Origin: a virus
Lineage: Duplodnaviria > Heunggongvirae > Uroviricota > Caudoviricetes
Direction: 5' to 3' (one strand)
DNA length: 5,022 nt
Virus record (IMG/VR): IMGVR_UViG_2778261568_000005
This document shows, in pieces, positions 1 through 4,940 of this stretch. Each line of letters begins with the position of its first letter. Within the stretch, counting starts at the first letter, position 1. The translations under genes and the position numbers were made by a program. The notes beneath the pieces were generated by a model. The model made no database searches and was not told the DNA's origin. It saw only the letters and a list, made by a program, of their open reading frames with translations.

Positions 1-203
1 TTGGTATACGTTTTACCGAGCATGATGTCTTTTCCTGTATGCCCGTGACATACAGTCCATACACCAACAATATCTTTATATGGTATGTAGCTGACACCTT
101 CCAGACCATCGTCACCACTCGGACCAGTGATGAGCACAGACGCTATGGCAACAGCCCCACCACCAATAGCAGCTGCTACAGCCTTGCGTAATGATGGCGA
201 CAT
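1..203 (-). CDS. rrrD: SAR endolysin (phage 21 R21 / DLP12 RrrD-type lysozyme), N-terminal 67 codons; continues beyond the left edge of the window
   Basis: Minus-strand translation from ATG at 203..201 gives [68 protein letters not shown], i.e. a Gly/Ala-rich signal-anchor-release segment followed by the start of a lysozyme catalytic region, as I recall for R21. The start overlaps the holin stop by 1 nt (TAATG). Confidence 0.85.
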
Positions 204-418
204 TATTCACCTCTCGCAGCCTTACGCTTATCTTCTTTAATCTTGAAATAAAGGTTTGTCAGATAAGTGAGAAAACCCAACACAAGGCTTCCAAGCACTC
301 CAATCGCCGCCCACTGTGACGGACTGACCTGATCAAGCCACTGTAAAAACCAGTAGCCAGCACTGCCTGCAGAGGTGCCGTAGGCAATGCCCGTTGTTAA
401 CTTGTCCATGGATTTCAT
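203..418 (-). CDS. essD: Class II holin / pinholin of the S21 (EssD) type, 71 aa
   Basis: ORF translation [71 protein letters not shown] closely matches my recollection of phage 21 S21. Dual-start motif Met1-Lys-Ser-Met4 (antiholin/holin), two hydrophobic segments, charged C-terminus. SD GGAGGTGA lies upstream of the ATG at 418. Immediately followed by the SAR endolysin. Confidence 0.9.
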
Positions 419-492
419 AGCCTCACCTCCGCGAATAACGGATGGTGTACACGGTTTGGAATGAAAGAGGGAAAGATACAGAAGTTACATTA

Positions 493-524
493 GAAAAGAA
501 AAACGCCAGCGATTATTCTGGCGT
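493..524 (-). terminator. Rho-independent terminator downstream of the AraC-family gene (minus strand)
   Basis: 7-bp stem ACGCCAG (503..509) / CTGGCGT (518..524), 8-nt loop, followed on the minus strand by UUUUCUUUUC (plus 502..493). Sits about 60 nt after the AraC stop and about 75 nt before the holin start. Confidence 0.6.
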
Positions 525-585
525 AGCTGAAAGCATCATATAATCATCAAATATGAAAATTACAAAATCATCAAAACGCATCACG

Positions 586-1317
586 TTACATCTTGCCTTT
601 TTCTAAAAAAAATCTTGATGAATATTCATGGGGGGGAACACCAAAATATCTTCTGAAAACACTTATAAAATATGACGCGCTTTCATAACCACATATTTTA
701 GCAACTTTCCCAACAGGATAGAAATTGTAGCTTAATAACCTTTCAGCCATCACCATTCGTTCTTCAAGAATTAATTTGCTAAATGATAAGCCTTCGTGTT
801 TTAGTTTTCTTTTTAACAAACTTTCACTCAGACATAGTCTTGAAGAAATATCACAAAGTCTCCATGCTGCAGATATGTCCGAGTGAATAATAGCCTTAAC
901 TTTGCTTCCTAAACTATTAAGACACCCAAACAAAAAACTCTGAAACATTTTTTCCGAGGATAAAATAGCAAGACATGCAAATAATATTGAATTTTTAACT
1001 ACAGCCGTAGTTTCACCATCACAATTCAAGCAACCTATCAAGTTCTTTAACAATGAATAGTCTGTACAGTTTACTATCAAGTATGCTGAATAAAATCTTC
1101 TTACAGAAAAAGGTGAGAGTGTATTGTTTTTAAAGAAGTCATTAACTGTTTTCTCTTCAATATCCACGATCATTATATTATCTTTATTTGAAGAAAAGAA
1201 AACTTTTAAATTGTATTCTATAGCAACAACACTTCCTTTTTTTAGAGAGATTTTTTCTTTACCAAGCCGGATATCAAACGAGTTCAAAACCAAAATGATA
1301 GAACATATGCATGGCAT
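586..1317 (-). CDS. AraC/XylS-family transcriptional regulator (about 243 aa), AT-rich, probably horizontally acquired
   Basis: ORF-track protein carries a C-terminal AraC-type HTH signature (...GYESASYFISVFRRYFGVPPHEY...) with overall architecture like the Rns/AppY/GadX group. I place the start at ATG 1317..1315 because a GGTGG Shine-Dalgarno precedes it by 5 nt; the ORF track's start at 1326 is a GTG lying inside that SD. Base composition is visibly AT-rich by eye. Confidence 0.8.
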   Translation of the reverse strand: MPCICSIILVLNSFDIRLGKEKISLKKGSVVAIEYNLKVFFSSNKDNIMIVDIEEKTVNDFFKNNTLSPFSVRRFYSAYLIVNCTDYSLLKNLIGCLNCDGETTAVVKNSILFACLAILSSEKMFQSFLFGCLNSLGSKVKAIIHSDISAAWRLCDISSRLCLSESLLKRKLKHEGLSFSKLILEERMVMAERLLSYNFYPVGKVAKICGYESASYFISVFRRYFGVPPHEYSSRFFLEKGKM

Positions 1318-1326
1318 ACCATCCAC

Positions 1327-1635
1327 CTGACATAATTAGATTTGAGTTAAGTAAGTATAGGTGGAAATATTAAAATTGCCATATTTTCAATGAGAAAAAT
1401 CTCATTATATCATCATGAACTTTGATATTTTCTTTAAAATATTTATGTAATACTAGATTAAACAGAACTATTTTTGGCTTGCTTGATTATTAATCATTAA
1501 TTAACATATTAACATTACCTTAAGCATGAACCGAATTTTTTTACAAACTGTACAACTATAGATATCATAGTGAAGTTTTTACGATTGTAAACATTCTCTA
1601 AGGAGAAAATCATCTTGTTGGTGCATTCCAAACGC
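1327..1635 (-). promoter_or_regulatory. AT-rich intergenic/leader region, candidate promoter for the AraC-family gene
   Basis: About 310 bp of very AT-rich non-coding DNA between the YbgA-like stop and the AraC start. On the minus strand an extended -10 element TGaTATAAT maps to plus 1412..1404, with no convincing -35. AT-rich tracts with palindromic TTAATTAA-type motifs (about 1486..1510) are typical of H-NS-bound xenogeneic promoters. Assignment is by eye only. Confidence 0.3.
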
Positions 1636-2595
1636 CTAGTTCACCAAGAGTCTTAGAGCCAGTTCATCAGGATAGGGGTGGAAGTAATTCTGTATAAGCA
1701 AATAATCATCAGGATACTCTGCCAAGTAATGCTTCAGCAAAGTTAATGGCGCAAGAAGAGGTAGCGTGCCAGCTCGATAGTTAAGTATAACATCGCTCAA
1801 CTCTTTACGCTGACGTGTATTTAAGCAGTTACTAAAATATCCCTGTATATGCATCAGCACATTCGTGTGATTTTTACGTGATGCAGGTTTTCTGAGAATC
1901 GCCATCAGCTTCTCACGATACACCTCAAAGTATGATTCAAGGTCTGCCCACTCATGTATTGCAGCCACAAATGGCCCCATCTCTTTATAACCGGCCTGGC
2001 TATGCGCCAACAACTGAAGCTTATAACGGCTATGAAAAGCTAATAATTCCCTTCTTGATAATTTCGCTTTATAAAGATGATTGAGCTCATGTAAAGCAAA
2101 TACTCTTTCAACAAAGTTTTCACGAAGCACTGGATCATGTAGTCGCCCATCCTCTTCAACCGGTAGCCAGGAAAACCTTTCCATCAACGTGCTCGTAAAT
2201 AGTCCCACTCCATCTTTACGACCACGATTACCATTTTCATCATATACACGCACGCGTTCCATACCACAGCTAGGAGATTTTGCACAAACCACAAATCCCG
2301 ATACATCCTTTAATTTGTCAAGATAAGAACGACTAAACTCTGTCATTTTCTCTGTAACATCCTCATTCTGGTCGTGGCTGAAACACATCCGTATATTTCC
2401 TTGCGCCGAGCGAACAAGACGTAGAGCAGGACGCGGAACTGGAAGCCCTATAGCCATTTCCGGACATACTGGTTTGAATGTTACCCATTCCAGTAATTTG
2501 TCCATTAAAAAGCTAGCTCTTTTGTGACCACCATCAAAACGGACAGAAGAACCGGCCAAACAACCACTGATCCCAACGACAGGTTTTTTTATCAT
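1636..2595 (-). CDS. DUF523 (TudS-like, putative [4Fe-4S] thio-nucleobase desulfidase fold) fused to DUF1722 (YbgA-like), 319 aa
   Basis: ATG at 2595 preceded by an AAGGGG Shine-Dalgarno. N-terminal half has the conserved cysteines in DUF523-like contexts (GISGCLAG, KPVCPEM, AKSPSCGM); C-terminal half resembles the DUF1722 domain of E. coli YbgA. Domain assignment is from recollection of the family motifs, not from an HMM search. Confidence 0.7.
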   Translation of the reverse strand: MIKKPVVGISGCLAGSSVRFDGGHKRASFLMDKLLEWVTFKPVCPEMAIGLPVPRPALRLVRSAQGNIRMCFSHDQNEDVTEKMTEFSRSYLDKLKDVSGFVVCAKSPSCGMERVRVYDENGNRGRKDGVGLFTSTLMERFSWLPVEEDGRLHDPVLRENFVERVFALHELNHLYKAKLSRRELLAFHSRYKLQLLAHSQAGYKEMGPFVAAIHEWADLESYFEVYREKLMAILRKPASRKNHTNVLMHIQGYFSNCLNTRQRKELSDVILNYRAGTLPLLAPLTLLKHYLAEYPDDYLLIQNYFHPYPDELALRLLVN

Positions 2596-2787
2596 TGCCT
2601 ACCCCTTGACTAATTCATTAACAGGTTAACAGTGTAGTACACGACCTAAACTGCCTTTCTGCCGTCATCACTGACAATTTTTTTGTTATGGACTATTCCT
2701 AATATAGTAGGAAAGTTCTTTAAGTGATCGGTAGTAATCATCTATCTTTAATACTTACTCTCAACTATCAAAAGTACAGGATATATT
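2596..2787. promoter_or_regulatory. Divergent intergenic region between the YbgA-like gene (minus) and the lipocalin gene (plus)
   Basis: 192 bp non-coding spacer between two divergently oriented start codons, each with a plausible SD (AGGA 7 nt before ATG 2788; AAGGGG before ATG 2595). It must contain both promoters; no individual hexamers could be assigned with confidence. Confidence 0.35.
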
Positions 2788-3312
2788 ATGAAGTTATGGC
2801 CTGTGTTGACTGGCATTGCACTCTCTTTCACTCTGATAGCATGTAAGGCCCCGACACCACCTAAAGGTGTGCAGCCGATTACAAATTTTGACACCAACCG
2901 CTACCTCGGAAAATGGTATGAAATAGCTCGGCTTGAGAACCGATTTGAACGTGGTCTGGAACAGGTCAGCGCCACTTATGGGAAACGGAACGACGGAGGG
3001 ATTAGTGTACTTAATCGTGGATATGACCCAACGAAAAACAAATGGAGCGAGAGCGAAGGTAAAGCATACTTTACAGGAGATAATACAACTGCAGCGTTGA
3101 AGGTTTCGTTTTTTGGCCCCTTCTATGGTGGCTATAATGTAATCAAACTGGATGATGAGTATAAGTATGCTCTTGTCAGTGGTCCGAACAGAGAATACCT
3201 ATGGATTCTGGCACGGACTCCAACTATTCCAGATAATGTAAAAGCAGACTATGTGCGTACTGCTCAAAAATTGGGATTCAATGTCAATGAACTATTATGG
3301 GTCAAACAATAA
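2788..3312 (+). CDS. blc: Bacterial lipocalin, outer-membrane lipoprotein of the Blc family, 174 aa
   Basis: Translation aligns along its length with my recollection of E. coli Blc: signal peptide ending in a lipobox (TLIAC), then ...NFDTNRYLGKWYEIARLENRFERG...SEGKAYFTGD...ALKVSFFGPFYGGYNVI...YLWILARTPT.... Opposite strand to all phage genes. Confidence 0.85.
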   Translation: MKLWPVLTGIALSFTLIACKAPTPPKGVQPITNFDTNRYLGKWYEIARLENRFERGLEQVSATYGKRNDGGISVLNRGYDPTKNKWSESEGKAYFTGDNTTAALKVSFFGPFYGGYNVIKLDDEYKYALVSGPNREYLWILARTPTIPDNVKADYVRTAQKLGFNVNELLWVKQ

Positions 3313-3340
3313 AATACCTAACCGGATTGATACTTATTAG

Positions 3341-3368
3341 AAAAAAAACCAGCCTTTGGGGAGGCTGG
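3341..3368 (-). terminator. Strong rho-independent terminator downstream of Q (tR'-like); may also stop the convergent lipocalin transcript
   Basis: Stem CCAGCCT (3349..3355) / AGGCTGG (3362..3368), 6-nt loop, followed on the minus strand by eight U (plus 3341..3348 is A8). About 100 nt downstream of the Q stop, as expected for the terminator that Q-modified polymerase reads through. On the plus strand it is preceded by the A-tract and not followed by T, so termination of blc would be weaker. Confidence 0.7.
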
Positions 3369-3468
3369 CTAAATCAGGGAACAAGCTGTTATATGATCAT
3401 AACTACGTTGCGATTCTAACATTTGAAACATTAGTCTAATGATAACCAGACAGCAACTTTTCCTTTAA
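3369..3468 (-). promoter_or_regulatory. Candidate late promoter (pR'-like) and Q-utilisation region between Q and the terminator
   Basis: Position is the canonical one for pR'/qut in lambdoid phages. On the minus strand: candidate -35 TTGCTG (plus 3456..3451), 17-bp spacer, -10 TAATGT (plus 3433..3428), and a further -10-like hexamer TAGAAT (plus 3418..3413) in the initial transcribed region that could act as a sigma-dependent pause element. The exact hexamers are my inference and not a match to a remembered sequence. Confidence 0.4.
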
Positions 3469-3846
3469 TTATCTCAAACAATCAGCATCCATCTCCAATC
3501 TGAGATCCAACACCATCAGCATGCCCTCCACTACGCCCTCAGCTTTTTGGAGCATCCTGCCAATCCAACAATCAGATCTACCATGCTTACGCGCAAGCGC
3601 CATAAAAGTCATGCCGCCGACATAATAGTCCACTAACAAATCATGCAAATCGCTGTTGTTATTTTTCAGACGGGCCATGCACCCGCAAATGATCATCGCG
3701 TCATCGTCACAACATTGCGGGCGAGATTTTACTTTTGAAGGAATTAATCCCTTAAAACCGGCGGCAATGGACGACCAGGTCACATCTTCATGATTATTAG
3801 CCGCCCACGCTCCCCAACGCTCAAGAACCATCTGAATATCACGCAT
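3469..3846 (-). CDS. quuD: Late-gene antiterminator Q (phage 82/21 QuuD-type), 125 aa
   Basis: Translation [34 protein letters not shown]...[17 protein letters not shown]... matches my recollection of DLP12 QuuD / Q82. I use ATG 3846..3844 (GGAG SD 7 nt upstream); the ORF track's start at 3861 is a TTG adding 5 residues. Confidence 0.85.
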
Positions 3847-3931
3847 CAACTTACTCCACAAAAATCAGACCAGAACGCCAATTACAAGCAAAAATCAGCA
3901 AAACAGTATTAGTTGATTGTTATCTCTGACT

Positions 3932-4069: not shown

Positions 4070-4431
4070 CATTCATTCCCCATTTCGGTGATGGTCAATT
4101 CCAGCCTCCCACCTTTGGTAACAGGCATCTTCACAACGCGGTAATCAACGACCTGAGCATCATCCAGCCAGAAACCTGCTTTGGTGAGTGCGTCAAAAGC
4201 GGCTTTTTGCAGATTATCCAGGTCACGGCGACGGCGATCCGGCATGTGGCACTCAATGCGGATTTTCACAGGCATCGCCAGGCCGATATCCAGCATTGCG
4301 TTTTTAATGATTCGGGCGACGTTATCGCGGTATGCCTGCCCCTCTGCGCTGACGTGCGTGCGCCCGCGATTATGGCGATAATAGCGATTATTGCTCGGAG
4401 GCCAGGGTAGTGTGATGTGGTAAGTATTCAC
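4069..4431 (-). CDS. rusA: RusA Holliday-junction resolvase, 120 aa
   Basis: Translation [120 protein letters not shown] is essentially the E. coli RusA sequence as I recall it. Start codon is GTG (plus 4429..4431 = CAC), overlapping the upstream ybcO-like frame stop as GTGA. Confidence 0.92.
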
Positions 4432-4556
4432 GCCTTAATTACCCCCTCTTTCAGCCAGATAACCTGCGTTCTCGCCATACCTTCCCGCGCGCATTCTTTT
4501 GCATATGCAGCATCGACTTGCTTGGCATGCCCTTTACCGGCAATCTTCTGTATGCG
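4428..4556 (-). pseudogene. ybcO: ybcO-like (DUF1364, putative nuclease) 3' remnant, N-terminally disrupted
   Basis: Minus-strand frame ending at TGA 4430..4428 translates to ...[29 protein letters not shown], matching the C-terminus of DLP12 YbcO as I remember it, with the stop overlapping the rusA start exactly as in the ybcO-rusA arrangement. Upstream the frame is closed by TAG at 4559..4557 and 4565..4563, and the only in-frame ATG (4478..4476) would give 16 aa. YbcO is 96 aa as I recall, so this looks like a truncated remnant. Confidence 0.4.
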
Positions 4557-4637
4557 CTAAACCTAGATAGAATCCACTCTGTGCACATTGAAGCCCGCTC
4601 TATGCTTCCTTTCAGGTATTGAAGGGATTGAGATGGG

Positions 4638-4940
4638 CTAAGCATTATTGGCCTCCTGCATCAGGAGAAAGACAATAATGGCGGCGCGGAGAGGTCTGGT
4701 ATCAAATATTGGGCTTACGCCTTTTGCATCCACACACCATTCAGTTAACTGGTCTAAGATAGAAATCCTGTATTTCTCAATAATCGGCCATGAAGCGCTC
4801 GGATCATTGCAGTAGTCAGGCAAATGATTTAATGGCTCAAAAGTTGTATCAGCATTTCCGTAATACCATTTGTTGGTGTTATTCCCTGATGTTTCCGGTT
4901 TACTTGCCCAAAGGCCTTTAAAAATTATGTCTCCTACCAT
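4638..4940 (-). CDS. Hypothetical protein, 100 aa, unknown function
   Basis: Uninterrupted ORF from ATG 4940 to TAG 4640..4638 with reasonable codon appearance, sitting where ninE/ybcO would be in DLP12, but I do not recognise the sequence. No Shine-Dalgarno upstream of the ATG (an AGGAG lies just inside the ORF), and a stable hairpin ends 6 nt before the start, so the start is uncertain. Confidence 0.4.

Follow-up and report, generated by a model that had tools for sequence, protein, structure and literature searches.

This locus raises the question of what a gene for a fusion of a TudS (DUF523) domain and a DUF1722 domain is doing in the late region of a temperate Escherichia coli phage. 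In the window, the whole 5,022-nucleotide stretch of viral DNA analysed here, the gene runs from ATG to stop as one reading frame and encodes a single polypeptide of 319 aa. Pfam profiles identify PF04463 (2-thiouracil desulfurase, formerly DUF523) at aa 7–149 (E 3.6e-40; score 137.7 bits, cut-off 34.7) and PF08349 (DUF1722) at aa 192–309 (E 1.3e-40), both far above their gathering scores. The profile search that an earlier, sequence-only reading of the window had called for thus bears out the domain fusion it proposed. H3V29_gp66 of Escherichia phage 1H12 has exactly this DNA and protein sequence (319/319 aa) and the same neighbouring genes, and the window matches that phage at 99.94% identity over 4949 bp. 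H3V29_gp66 is the “RudS_vir” of Jamontas et al. 2024, NAR (PMC11417400). The gene, here rudS, is real and intact, and its product has been characterised previously. Work published in 2024 on this very protein had already answered the biochemical question, and the finding as first stated is not new; the sequence-only reading overstated matters in calling a thio-tRNA activity unexpected, the family having been named RudS in 2024 with this exact protein among those assayed (PMC11417400).

Table 1 Features of the window, in window coordinates
Feature	Position	Strand	Basis
Phage 21-type class II holin gene, first lysis gene past the cassette	203..418	minus	PF04971 (E 3e-35), annotation
Variable cargo segment (leader/terminator, lipocalin gene, rudS, AraC-like gene)	430..3486		DLP12 homology breaks
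Terminator-like hairpin and T-run, between AraC-like gene and holin gene	503..524	minus	Terminator scan, folding
AraC-family (AppY/EnvY/YdeO-like) regulator gene	586..1326 (PGAP start 1317)	minus	HTH_18, HTH_AraC
rudS coding sequence, 319 aa, TudS–DUF1722 fusion	1636..2595	minus	ORF list, Pfam, identity to RudS_vir
DUF1722 domain, aa 192–309, all-helical	1669..2022	minus	PF08349, AlphaFold2 model, YbgA identity
Catalytic TudS/DUF523 domain, aa 7–149	2149..2577	minus	PF04463, TudS alignment, conservation, Foldseek
Divergent intergenic region, rudS to lipocalin gene	2596..2787		Sequence
Blc-like outer-membrane lipocalin gene, 174 aa	2788..3312	plus	PF08212, NCBIfam, PDB Blc
Strong intrinsic terminator, 9-bp stem followed by eight U	3337..3370	minus	Terminator scan
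Promoter-like site with extended -10 (TG-n-GATAAT), 3′ end of Q	3468..3497	minus	Consensus scan only
Antiterminator Q gene, Q21 family	3469..3861 (PGAP start 3846)	minus	PF06530, PDB Q21

The three cysteines that had been picked out from the sequence in GCLAG, VCPE and SPSCG contexts are present as Cys12 (SGCLAG), Cys44 (PVCPEM) and Cys110 (SPSCGME). They align with Cys10, Cys43 and Cys104 of crystallised TudS (PDB 6z92), are 97–99% conserved among 143 diverse family representatives (≤50% identity), and are listed at the same positions for RudS_vir in Table 1 of PMC11417400. By homology, Cys12, Cys44 and Cys110 are predicted to ligate a [4Fe-4S] cluster; binding of an Fe-S cluster has been demonstrated for RudS_KT and TudS, not RudS_vir (PMC11417400). 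The catalytic residues Glu46, Arg55, Ser107 and Ser109 are also present and 94–99% conserved in the 143 representatives; mapped by their offset from the cysteines, they correspond to Glu51, Arg60, Ser111 and Ser113 of RudS_KT. In an AlphaFold2 model of RudS (mean pLDDT 70.8), the N-terminal domain finds TudS structures as its sole significant PDB matches (Foldseek probability 1.00, target TM 0.62–0.68), and this agreement, together with the cysteine alignment to 6z92, supports the fold and cysteine geometry for which the sequence-only reading had suggested a structural check.

TudS (PDB 6z92–6z96 and 6zw9) and RudS agree in the fold of the catalytic domain, in the three cysteines of the cluster and in the Glu and Ser residues, but TudS is a single-domain protein with a deposited chain of 166 aa and 27–28% identity to RudS. 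Its substrates are free bases and nucleotides (thiouracil, 4-thio-UMP), and it does not lower tRNA 4-thiouridine (s4U) (PMC11417400). RudS falls outside the stand-alone TudS class, being 319 aa long, having the extra DUF1722 domain and giving no TudS-like growth rescue (PMC11417400).

The C-terminal domain is helical in the model, and the C-terminal half of RudS is 50% identical to K-12 YbgA over 152 aa. It is to this homology that the phage protein owes its NCBI name, “YbgA family”, the label that PGAP also gives to the gene at the same rudS coordinates in E. coli strain 550. E. coli YbgA, however, lacks the catalytic domain and is encoded upstream of phr, and RudS, at 189.6 bits, falls short of the 237 required by the NCBIfam YbgA equivalog NF007549, which it matches over aa 160–315 only. 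In the published RudS model, DUF1722 is a tRNA-binding domain that contacts the anticodon arm (PMC11417400). Judged by offset, Arg19, Phe20, Asp21, Ser239 and Arg240 of RudS would correspond to the tRNA-binding residues Arg24/Tyr25/Asn26 and Ser243/Arg244 of RudS_KT; at these five putative tRNA-binding positions the 143 representatives carry R, F/Y, D/N, T/S and R, and the RudS_KT Tyr25Phe variant retains wild-type activity (PMC11417400).

RudS_vir was assayed as a synthesised gene on an expression plasmid, in a study that did not discuss phage context, and its overexpression in E. coli lowered s4U in tRNA (PMC11417400). Every RudS variant assayed cut E. coli tRNA s4U 4.7- to 26-fold and stand-alone TudS and YbgA left it unaffected, although the tRNA-desulfidation activity of RudS_vir was below that expected from its protein level (PMC11417400). 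Overexpression of RudS_KT, the variant used in that experiment rather than RudS_vir, shortened the UV-A growth delay from ~105 to ~60 min (PMC11417400). The published s4U loss with the identical protein supports the link to tRNA s4U and UV at which the sequence-only reading had guessed. Its s2U and free-thiouracil readings find no such support: 2-thiocytidine was unchanged by RudS, s2U could not be detected, and growth on 2-thiouracil was not sustained by any RudS variant (PMC11417400).

These growth data bear on a different reading, in which the chief role of RudS, like that of stand-alone TudS, is to salvage thiolated pyrimidines in free form (4-thiouracil or 4-thio-UMP arising from tRNA turnover) and its effect on tRNA is a side activity of overexpression. 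RudS_vir gave uracil-auxotrophic E. coli on 4-thiouracil the shortest lag among the RudS variants (PMC11417400), and Pfam, alignment and Foldseek all identify the catalytic domain as a genuine TudS domain. We nonetheless regard salvage as improbable: no RudS variant rescued growth as TudS did and none did so on 2-thiouracil, tRNA s4U is lowered by all RudS variants and not by stand-alone TudS (PMC11417400), and the DUF1722 domain is kept under purifying selection.

It is very unlikely that RudS is instead a weapon or counter-defence directed at another thiolated target, such as wobble s2U34, which would tune the G/GT tail-chaperone frameshift, or modifications of competing-phage or host DNA. 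Lambda replication does need tRNA thiolation through that frameshift (PMC3296357), the prophage has the G and T chaperone genes, and the RudS study was unable to measure s2U, but loss of s2U34 hinders lambda rather than helping it (PMC3296357), and the 2-thiocytidine and 2-thiouracil results above also speak against such a target. Neither RudS nor the lipocalin nor the AraC-like protein had a match in PADLOC, leaving the interference or defence role raised in the sequence-only reading unsupported. Chromosomal orthologues, moreover, are ordinary genes in photolyase (phr) neighbourhoods or lipocalin-linked loci and not in defence islands.

As an eraser of tRNA s4U, RudS would work as follows. 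In the TudS domain, Cys12, Cys44 and Cys110 would hold a [4Fe-4S] cluster whose free iron takes the sulfur of s4U, with Glu46, Ser107 and Ser109 presumably acting in desulfidation catalysis. Docking of the tRNA would fall to the helical DUF1722 domain, and s4U at position 8 would become uridine again.

The surroundings of rudS are those of a lambdoid phage. Upstream of the cassette lie NinX, RusA, YlcG and Q (PF06530 E 2.5e-51; PDB Q21 6p18 E 2e-8), and downstream the holin, RrrD and RzpD, as identified by Pfam and PGAP annotation; these neighbours and the near-identity to phage 1H12 confirm the prophage setting that had been claimed. The genes are ordered Q, a tR′-like terminator, a Blc-like lipocalin gene on the opposite strand, rudS, the AraC-like regulator gene and holin, and this order is unchanged in 80/80 related IMG/VR loci and in E. 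coli strains 550, HS and PSS-11. The lipocalin gene, divergent from rudS and found in 80/80 viral loci, encodes a clear family member (PF08212 E 2.2e-43; NCBIfam Blc subfamily score 315 bits, cut-off 267; PDB Blc 1qwd E 5e-68). The AraC-like gene, 3′ of rudS, is AT-rich (GC 29–34%), and its product is 30% identical to AppY and 32% to EnvY.

Homology to the K-12 prophage DLP12 ends at window positions 429 and 3487. In the same Q-to-holin slot, K-12 DLP12 carries nmpC and K-12 Qin carries cspB/cspF, likewise with flanking terminators and GC below that of the phage backbone; unlike nmpC or cspB/cspF, the cargo here comprises a tRNA-modification-removing enzyme, a lipocalin and a regulator. The leader at 3313–3486 co-occurs with rudS (1105 versus 1082 genomes). 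Insertion between Q/tR′ and the lysis genes, with swappable cargo, marks lambdoid cargo, and the DLP12 breaks, the nmpC and cspB/cspF counterparts and the flanking terminators all display it. rudS is cargo (a “moron”) between Q with its tR′-like terminator and the holin gene of an E. coli lambda-like temperate phage.

Sequence signals offer several candidates for how this cargo might be expressed. The strong terminator lies ~100 nt downstream of Q, in a leader whose fold has a z of -3.1, and, by comparison with other lambdoid phages, is a candidate for tR′ of the late transcription unit. The promoter-like site at the 3′ end of Q is a weak candidate for the late promoter pR′; promoter-like sites in the window are as numerous as expected from shuffled sequence in the consensus scan. 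The hairpin before the holin gene marks the distal end of the cassette. Directly after rudS and before the AraC-like gene we found no convincing terminator, folding there being no better than in shuffled sequence. A Shine-Dalgarno-like AAGGGGTAGG stands immediately 5′ of the rudS ATG. The divergent intergenic region gives a single weak promoter-like match in the consensus scan (minus strand, 2764..2737) and may contain a promoter active in the lysogen. The idea that phage and chromosomal loci have a conserved native promoter in common was considered and rejected, the Kluyvera blc–rudS intergenic region giving no meaningful alignment to that of the phage. A search near rudS for a LexA box or another SOS- or UV-linked operator found none: the full LexA consensus had no match, and CTGT-N8-ACAG with one mismatch matched once, within coding sequence and at chance level. 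No structured RNA or tRNA genes were found in the window, and inverted repeats in its intergenic regions are AT-rich, low-information palindromes only.

During lytic growth, Q-modified RNA polymerase would be expected to read through the cassette, and a separate promoter may drive rudS in the lysogen. The description of the locus as part of a late operon, made in the sequence-only reading, holds as to place, with rudS on the late strand, between Q and holin and past the tR′-like terminator; as to transcription, this support is positional and the cassette may have a promoter of its own.

The prophage gene is common. We find rudS in 1082/5426 complete E. coli genomes (~20%), in prophages of which some are apparently complete and others decayed (Qin-like). 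Both IMG/VR scans that gave matches returned the same 80 loci, each bearing this cassette, and IMG/VR scans with a 55%-identical relative and a Klebsiella orthologue gave no RudS in other phage lineages. Among GenBank phages, full-length RudS occurs only in Escherichia lambda-like phages; the remaining matches are a partial one of 67% identity, from a 1.6-kb record that is labelled as a Salmonella phage, and weak ones confined to the N-terminal domain.

That rudS might be a functionless passenger, hitch-hiking with the lambdoid Q–lysis region in, for example, decaying Qin-like prophages, would agree with the many copies in defective prophages (including those of HS and PSS-11), with the IS3 element that interrupts rudS in BL21(DE3), and with frequent disruption of the neighbouring AraC-like gene (11/76 copies). 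Such a reading is barely tenable, however, given that rudS is intact in 84/84 surveyed copies with all catalytic residues retained, that dN/dS is ~0.11 between allele groups at dS ~0.30, and that activity in E. coli has been shown for the identical protein (PMC11417400). By these sequence comparisons, rudS is evidently under purifying selection.

Taken together, RudS is in all probability a two-domain eraser of tRNA s4U carried as prophage cargo in a fixed lipocalin–RudS–AraC-like cassette; its expression and its benefit in light we infer.

Chromosomal RudS proteins of Enterobacterales (RudS_ST/ORF319 of Salmonella), and also RudS_KT of Pseudomonas putida, have the same 319-aa two-domain layout, cysteines and catalytic residues. 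Phage RudS is 68–76% identical to a lineage not linked to phr (Citrobacter, Klebsiella, Enterobacter and Kluyvera) and 70–74% to Salmonella enterica homologues. Chromosomal rudS usually has a MerR/MlrA-type regulator next to it or a photolyase gene downstream (also PMC11417400), whereas the phage copy has neither and, unlike chromosomal copies, lies in the late region and adjoins an AraC-like regulator. Many chromosomal copies nevertheless also have a divergent Blc-like lipocalin neighbour, and among close chromosomal relatives (68–76% identity) the lipocalin is linked in 20/36 loci. The phage appears to have acquired its lipocalin–RudS pair from a chromosomal locus in enterobacteria. K-12 ybgA aligns only to aa 137–316 of a RudS of the rudS–phr type, and E. 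coli's own ybgA appears to be a 5′-truncated rudS.

Prophage RudS may thus replace a function lost by the species, its own rudS having perhaps decayed to ybgA. Loss of the UV-A photosensor s4U would be expected to lessen tRNA cross-linking, shorten the growth delay and dampen the stringent response, a benefit conditional on light. It might be felt by the lysogen in sunlit environments, or by sustaining late protein synthesis when UV induces the prophage. Lambda replication is mildly inhibited in a thiI deletion host (PMC3296357), and therefore erasure of s4U brings no obvious advantage to lytic growth in darkness. That prophage RudS is a light-conditional fitness factor restoring a function lost in E. 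coli, with the co-captured lipocalin belonging to the same light/envelope-stress module, is a tentative proposal that we think has less than an even chance of being right; the RudS paper does not take up such a role (PMC11417400). If the light-conditional part is true, lysogens would gain in sunlit secondary habitats, and late-gene translation could continue under induction by sunlight.

In the library searched, we found no paper combining RudS with prophages, and protein accessions occurred only in the RudS paper (PMC11417400). What is added here is context: a tRNA-modification eraser as fixed, selected cargo of a common E. coli prophage family, present in about one in five complete genomes. 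This carriage is at odds with the statement in the RudS paper that E. coli has no RudS (PMC11417400). Differences between strains in UV-A growth delay, in stringent-response dynamics and in s4U-based RNA labelling could depend on prophage content, and phage 1H12 lysogens with and without rudS offer a simple system in which to ask if phages alter tRNA modification in the host to serve themselves or that host.

A reading of the sequence alone had taken the rudS frame for a fusion of DUF523 (TudS-like) and DUF1722 domains with three cysteines in GCLAG, VCPE and SPSCG contexts, and had proposed an HMM search and structure prediction as checks. The observation is confirmed in full. In Pfam, PF04463 (2-thiouracil desulfurase, DUF523/TudS) covers residues 7-149 (E 3.6e-40) and PF08349 (DUF1722) residues 192-309 (E 1.3e-40) of the single 319-codon ORF, both far over gathering thresholds. 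The cysteines are Cys12 (SGCLAG), Cys44 (PVCPEM) and Cys110 (SPSCGME), which align by phmmer with the cluster ligands Cys10, Cys43 and Cys104 of the stand-alone enzyme TudS (PDB 6z92); Glu46, Ser107 and Ser109 lie opposite the TudS Glu and Ser of the same motifs. A search of 1.84 billion cluster representatives returned 4138 relatives at E <= 1e-10, and when 142 full-length representatives are aligned to the query, conservation is 94-99% at Cys12, Arg19, Cys44, Glu46, Arg55, Ser107, Ser109 and Cys110. Built from 43 sequences, the AlphaFold2 model has a mean pLDDT of 70.8 (moderate quality), with the N-terminal domain core mostly at 80-92 and residues 15-27 and the C-terminal 40 residues poor. 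In the PDB the model significantly matches the five TudS chains and nothing else (Foldseek probability 1.00, E 5e-5 to 2.5e-4, target TM 0.62-0.68); the PDB holds no solved structure of a DUF1722 domain.

A tblastn search of GenBank phages finds the protein at 100% identity in eleven Escherichia lambda-like phage records, including Escherichia phage 1H12 (NC_049947), to which the whole window is 99.94% identical across 4949 bp. The 1H12 counterpart, H3V29_gp66, is identical in protein and in its 960-bp DNA, and was named "RudS_vir" by Jamontas et al. (2024, Nucleic Acids Res 52:10543; PMC11417400), whose Table 1 lists it with Cys12, Cys44 and Cys110. What the ORF encodes has therefore been settled biochemically by published work, and the finding, whose protein exactly matches an enzyme studied by experiment, is already known. 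In that paper, RudS is defined as a TudS-DUF1722 fusion, and six RudS genes, RudS_vir among them, each lowered 4-thiouridine (s4U) in E. coli tRNA 4.7- to 26-fold when overexpressed; stand-alone TudS and YbgA (DUF1722 only) had no effect. Mutating the cluster cysteines and catalytic residues abolished the activity of the Pseudomonas putida enzyme RudS_KT, which shortened the UV-A growth delay from ~105 to ~60 min. RudS_vir expressed well, was comparatively less active on tRNA and gave the shortest lag on 4-thiouracil. The first reading's interpretation was essentially right, the identical protein lowering tRNA s4U on overexpression; action on s2C finds no support, 2-thiocytidine being unchanged by RudS (PMC11417400).

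The window comes from a lambdoid prophage of E. coli. Read in the sense of late transcription, its minus strand carries NinX, a DUF1364 remnant, RusA, YlcG and Q (Q21 family); after Q come a Blc-like lipocalin gene on the opposite strand, rudS, an AraC-family regulator gene and a phage-21-type holin gene, followed beyond the window by RrrD, RzpD, Iss/Bor and the terminase genes. Homology with K-12 DLP12 ends at positions 3487 and 429. DLP12 has the same rusA-ylcG-Q and holin-rrrD-rzpD-bor backbone, but nmpC stands where the window has a 3.06-kb intervening segment, and in K-12 Qin cspB and cspF fill the equivalent Q-to-holin interval. Because these prophages carry other genes in the interval, rudS is cargo in the classic Q-to-S position. 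Overlapping the DUF1364 remnant is a 64-aa ORF (4451-4645); the phage 1H12 annotation calls it a hypothetical protein (gp61), and it matches nothing in Pfam.

Features of the rudS cassette and its surroundings, in window coordinates
Feature	Position	Strand	Remarks
Second terminator-like hairpin	524..503	-	follows AraC-like gene
AraC-family regulator gene	586-1326	-	with AT-rich spacer 1327-1635; 27-33% GC
rudS ORF	1636..2595	-	319 codons, ATG to stop
Blc-like outer-membrane lipocalin gene	2788-3312	+	NCBIfam Blc subfamily, above cut-off
Strong intrinsic terminator	3370..3347	-	9-bp stem and eight-U run; ~100 nt 3' of Q stop codon
Promoter-like site, extended -10 element	3497..3468	-	consensus match; precedes terminator
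DUF1364 pseudogene remnant	4428-4645	-	between RusA and NinX; N-terminus missing (PGAP)

By analogy, the promoter-like site and strong terminator have the pR'/tR' layout of lambdoid phages, with the candidate pR' recognized by consensus match in a window whose count of promoter-like matches equals shuffle expectation. The leader has a better predicted fold than its shuffles (z = -3.1). Across E. coli genomes the 174-bp leader co-occurs with rudS (1105 vs 1082) and is therefore part of the cassette. A terminator scan and folding gave no convincing terminator immediately 3' of rudS, and the window scan no LexA box. From position and strand we infer that Q-modified polymerase would cross the lipocalin gene in antisense and go on to transcribe rudS, the AraC-like gene and the lysis genes. 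The 192-bp region between the divergent genes (2596-2787) may hold a separate promoter.

Among complete E. coli genomes, 1082 of 5426 (~20%) carry rudS, which contradicts the remark in PMC11417400 that E. coli lacks RudS. The window allele (at least 99% identity) is present in 110 genomes, and a second allele (90-95% nucleotide identity; ~92% among the matches listed) in 971. Strain 550 holds the window allele in a lambda-like prophage that sits at icd and appears complete, and strains HS and PSS-11 the second allele in Qin-like remnants. All 80 retrieved IMG/VR loci share the order Q, lipocalin (opposite strand), RudS, AraC-like gene, holin. All 84 rudS copies surveyed are intact, with median dN 0.032 and dS 0.30 between allele groups; its dN/dS of ~0.11 is comparable to those of Q (0.105), the lipocalin gene (0.078, strong purifying selection) and the holin gene (0.067). 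Because of this intactness and constraint, RudS is kept by selection and is no decaying passenger. Of the cassette's genes, the AraC-like one has diverged furthest (dN/dS 0.28) and is broken most frequently (11 of 76 copies); its product is distantly related to the prophage regulators AppY (30% identity) and EnvY (32%), its best NCBIfam match, YdeO, falling far under the cut-off.

The strain 550 prophage (locus L001, positions 18923-19216 and 36329-41291) also encodes Iss (Bor-like), a serum-survival lipoprotein, and lies a few kb from mnmA (tRNA 2-thiouridine synthase), a closeness that is probably coincidental. BL21(DE3), the expression host of the published s4U assays (PMC11417400), retains a relic of the Q-lipocalin-rudS cassette in a Qin-like prophage (NZ_CP053602.1, 1584487-1594633; positions 3751-6340 of locus L176), with rudS broken by IS3 after 147 nt.

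Chromosomal relatives were collected from one genome per GTDB species, and the 80 retrieved loci sorted by context. At 42 loci, RudS is 57-64% identical to the phage protein and the photolyase gene phr begins immediately after rudS; another 36, without phr linkage, reach 68-76%. Even these closest relatives, in Citrobacter, Klebsiella, Enterobacter, Buttiauxella, Kluyvera and Salmonella, are thus only 68-76% identical. A Blc-like lipocalin gene lies 113-1529 bp upstream of rudS on the opposite strand at 20 of the 36 non-phr loci (Kluyvera, Enterobacter, Buttiauxella, Raoultella and others), its product 73-82% identical to the phage lipocalin. In Kluyvera the two genes are directly divergent, as in the phage, whereas in Enterobacter an MlrA-like MerR regulator and a transthyretin-like hydrolase stand between them. 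Given this linkage, the phage lipocalin-RudS pair looks like a block captured from the non-phr enterobacterial locus type without the MerR regulator. The lipocalin gene is divergent from rudS in every phage copy; with the 20 chromosomal loci, this suggests a functional pairing, which the available text of PMC11417400 does not mention.

In Klebsiella grimontii (loci L088-L090, positions 106-6960), rudS ends a co-directional cluster of SnoaL, SDR, amine oxidase, DUF1365, cyclopropane-fatty-acid synthase, DUF2878, a 174-aa protein without a Pfam match, and DUF3833, resembling the Pseudomonas light- and oxidative-stress clusters discussed in PMC11417400. Two metagenome-assembled genomes are probably contaminated by mis-binned enterobacterial or prophage DNA: 'Candidatus Nanosynbacter' (L133, a 3.2-kb contig) has a phage-type rudS (88% identity) alongside an AraC-like gene and holin, and 'uncultured Clostridiales' (L095) a Citrobacter-type rudS (76%).

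K-12 YbgA is nearer the phr-linked lineage (median 59% vs 51%). At the K-12 ybgA locus (NC_000913.3, 737000-741500; positions 1957-2511 of locus L174), the phr-linked RudS of Citrobacter werkmanii aligns only from residue 137 on, beginning 45 nt ahead of where ybgA is annotated to start, and the homology ends adjoining the ybfD H-repeat element. In 42 other Enterobacterales species, phr is immediately preceded by a full-length rudS. With the alignment confined to residue 137 onward, E. coli ybgA seems to be a rudS that has lost its 5' part. Among the E. coli chromosomes examined, full-length RudS occurs only in the prophage cassette; a few plasmids carry another type. A sensitive DNA search found 60 places on E. 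coli plasmid records matching rudS at lower identity, the two listed having 66% nucleotide identity and a YbgA family annotation. The one plasmid inspected, pCFSAN061763 (NZ_CP042900.1; positions 5216-9209 of locus L175), encodes an Enterobacter-type RudS, unlike the cassette one, whose module comprises a partial lipocalin, MerR-family regulator, uraH, RudS and AAA ATPase and adjoins IS26 and a class 1 integron.

The catalytic mechanism is the one published for TudS and RudS, and the conserved residues support it here. The three cysteines would hold a [4Fe-4S] cluster, and the s4U8 thiocarbonyl would bind through its sulfur to the fourth iron. Hydrolytic desulfuration would be aided by Glu and Ser, and DUF1722 would dock the tRNA anticodon arm. 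Under UV-A, s4U8 cross-links to C13, which leaves the tRNA poorly charged, delays growth and sets off a burst of ppGpp (PMC11417400). Our literature search found no paper addressing the role of phage-borne RudS. The suggested defence or interference function finds no support, PADLOC returning no hits. Lambda replication is mildly but significantly inhibited in the dark in a thiI deletion host, an effect its authors credit to sulfur partitioning at IscS (PMC3296357), and this inhibition argues against an unconditional pro-lytic role of s4U erasure. A benefit that depends on light is the most parsimonious inference: s4U erasure would blunt the UV-A response in the lysogen and could also do so in the late phase after a prophage is induced by sunlight.

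What is incremental over the known enzyme is a fixed, selected cargo cassette with ~20% carriage in complete E. coli genomes, together with a lipocalin-RudS module apparently captured from an enterobacterial chromosome and an E. coli rudS of its own that seems to be truncated.
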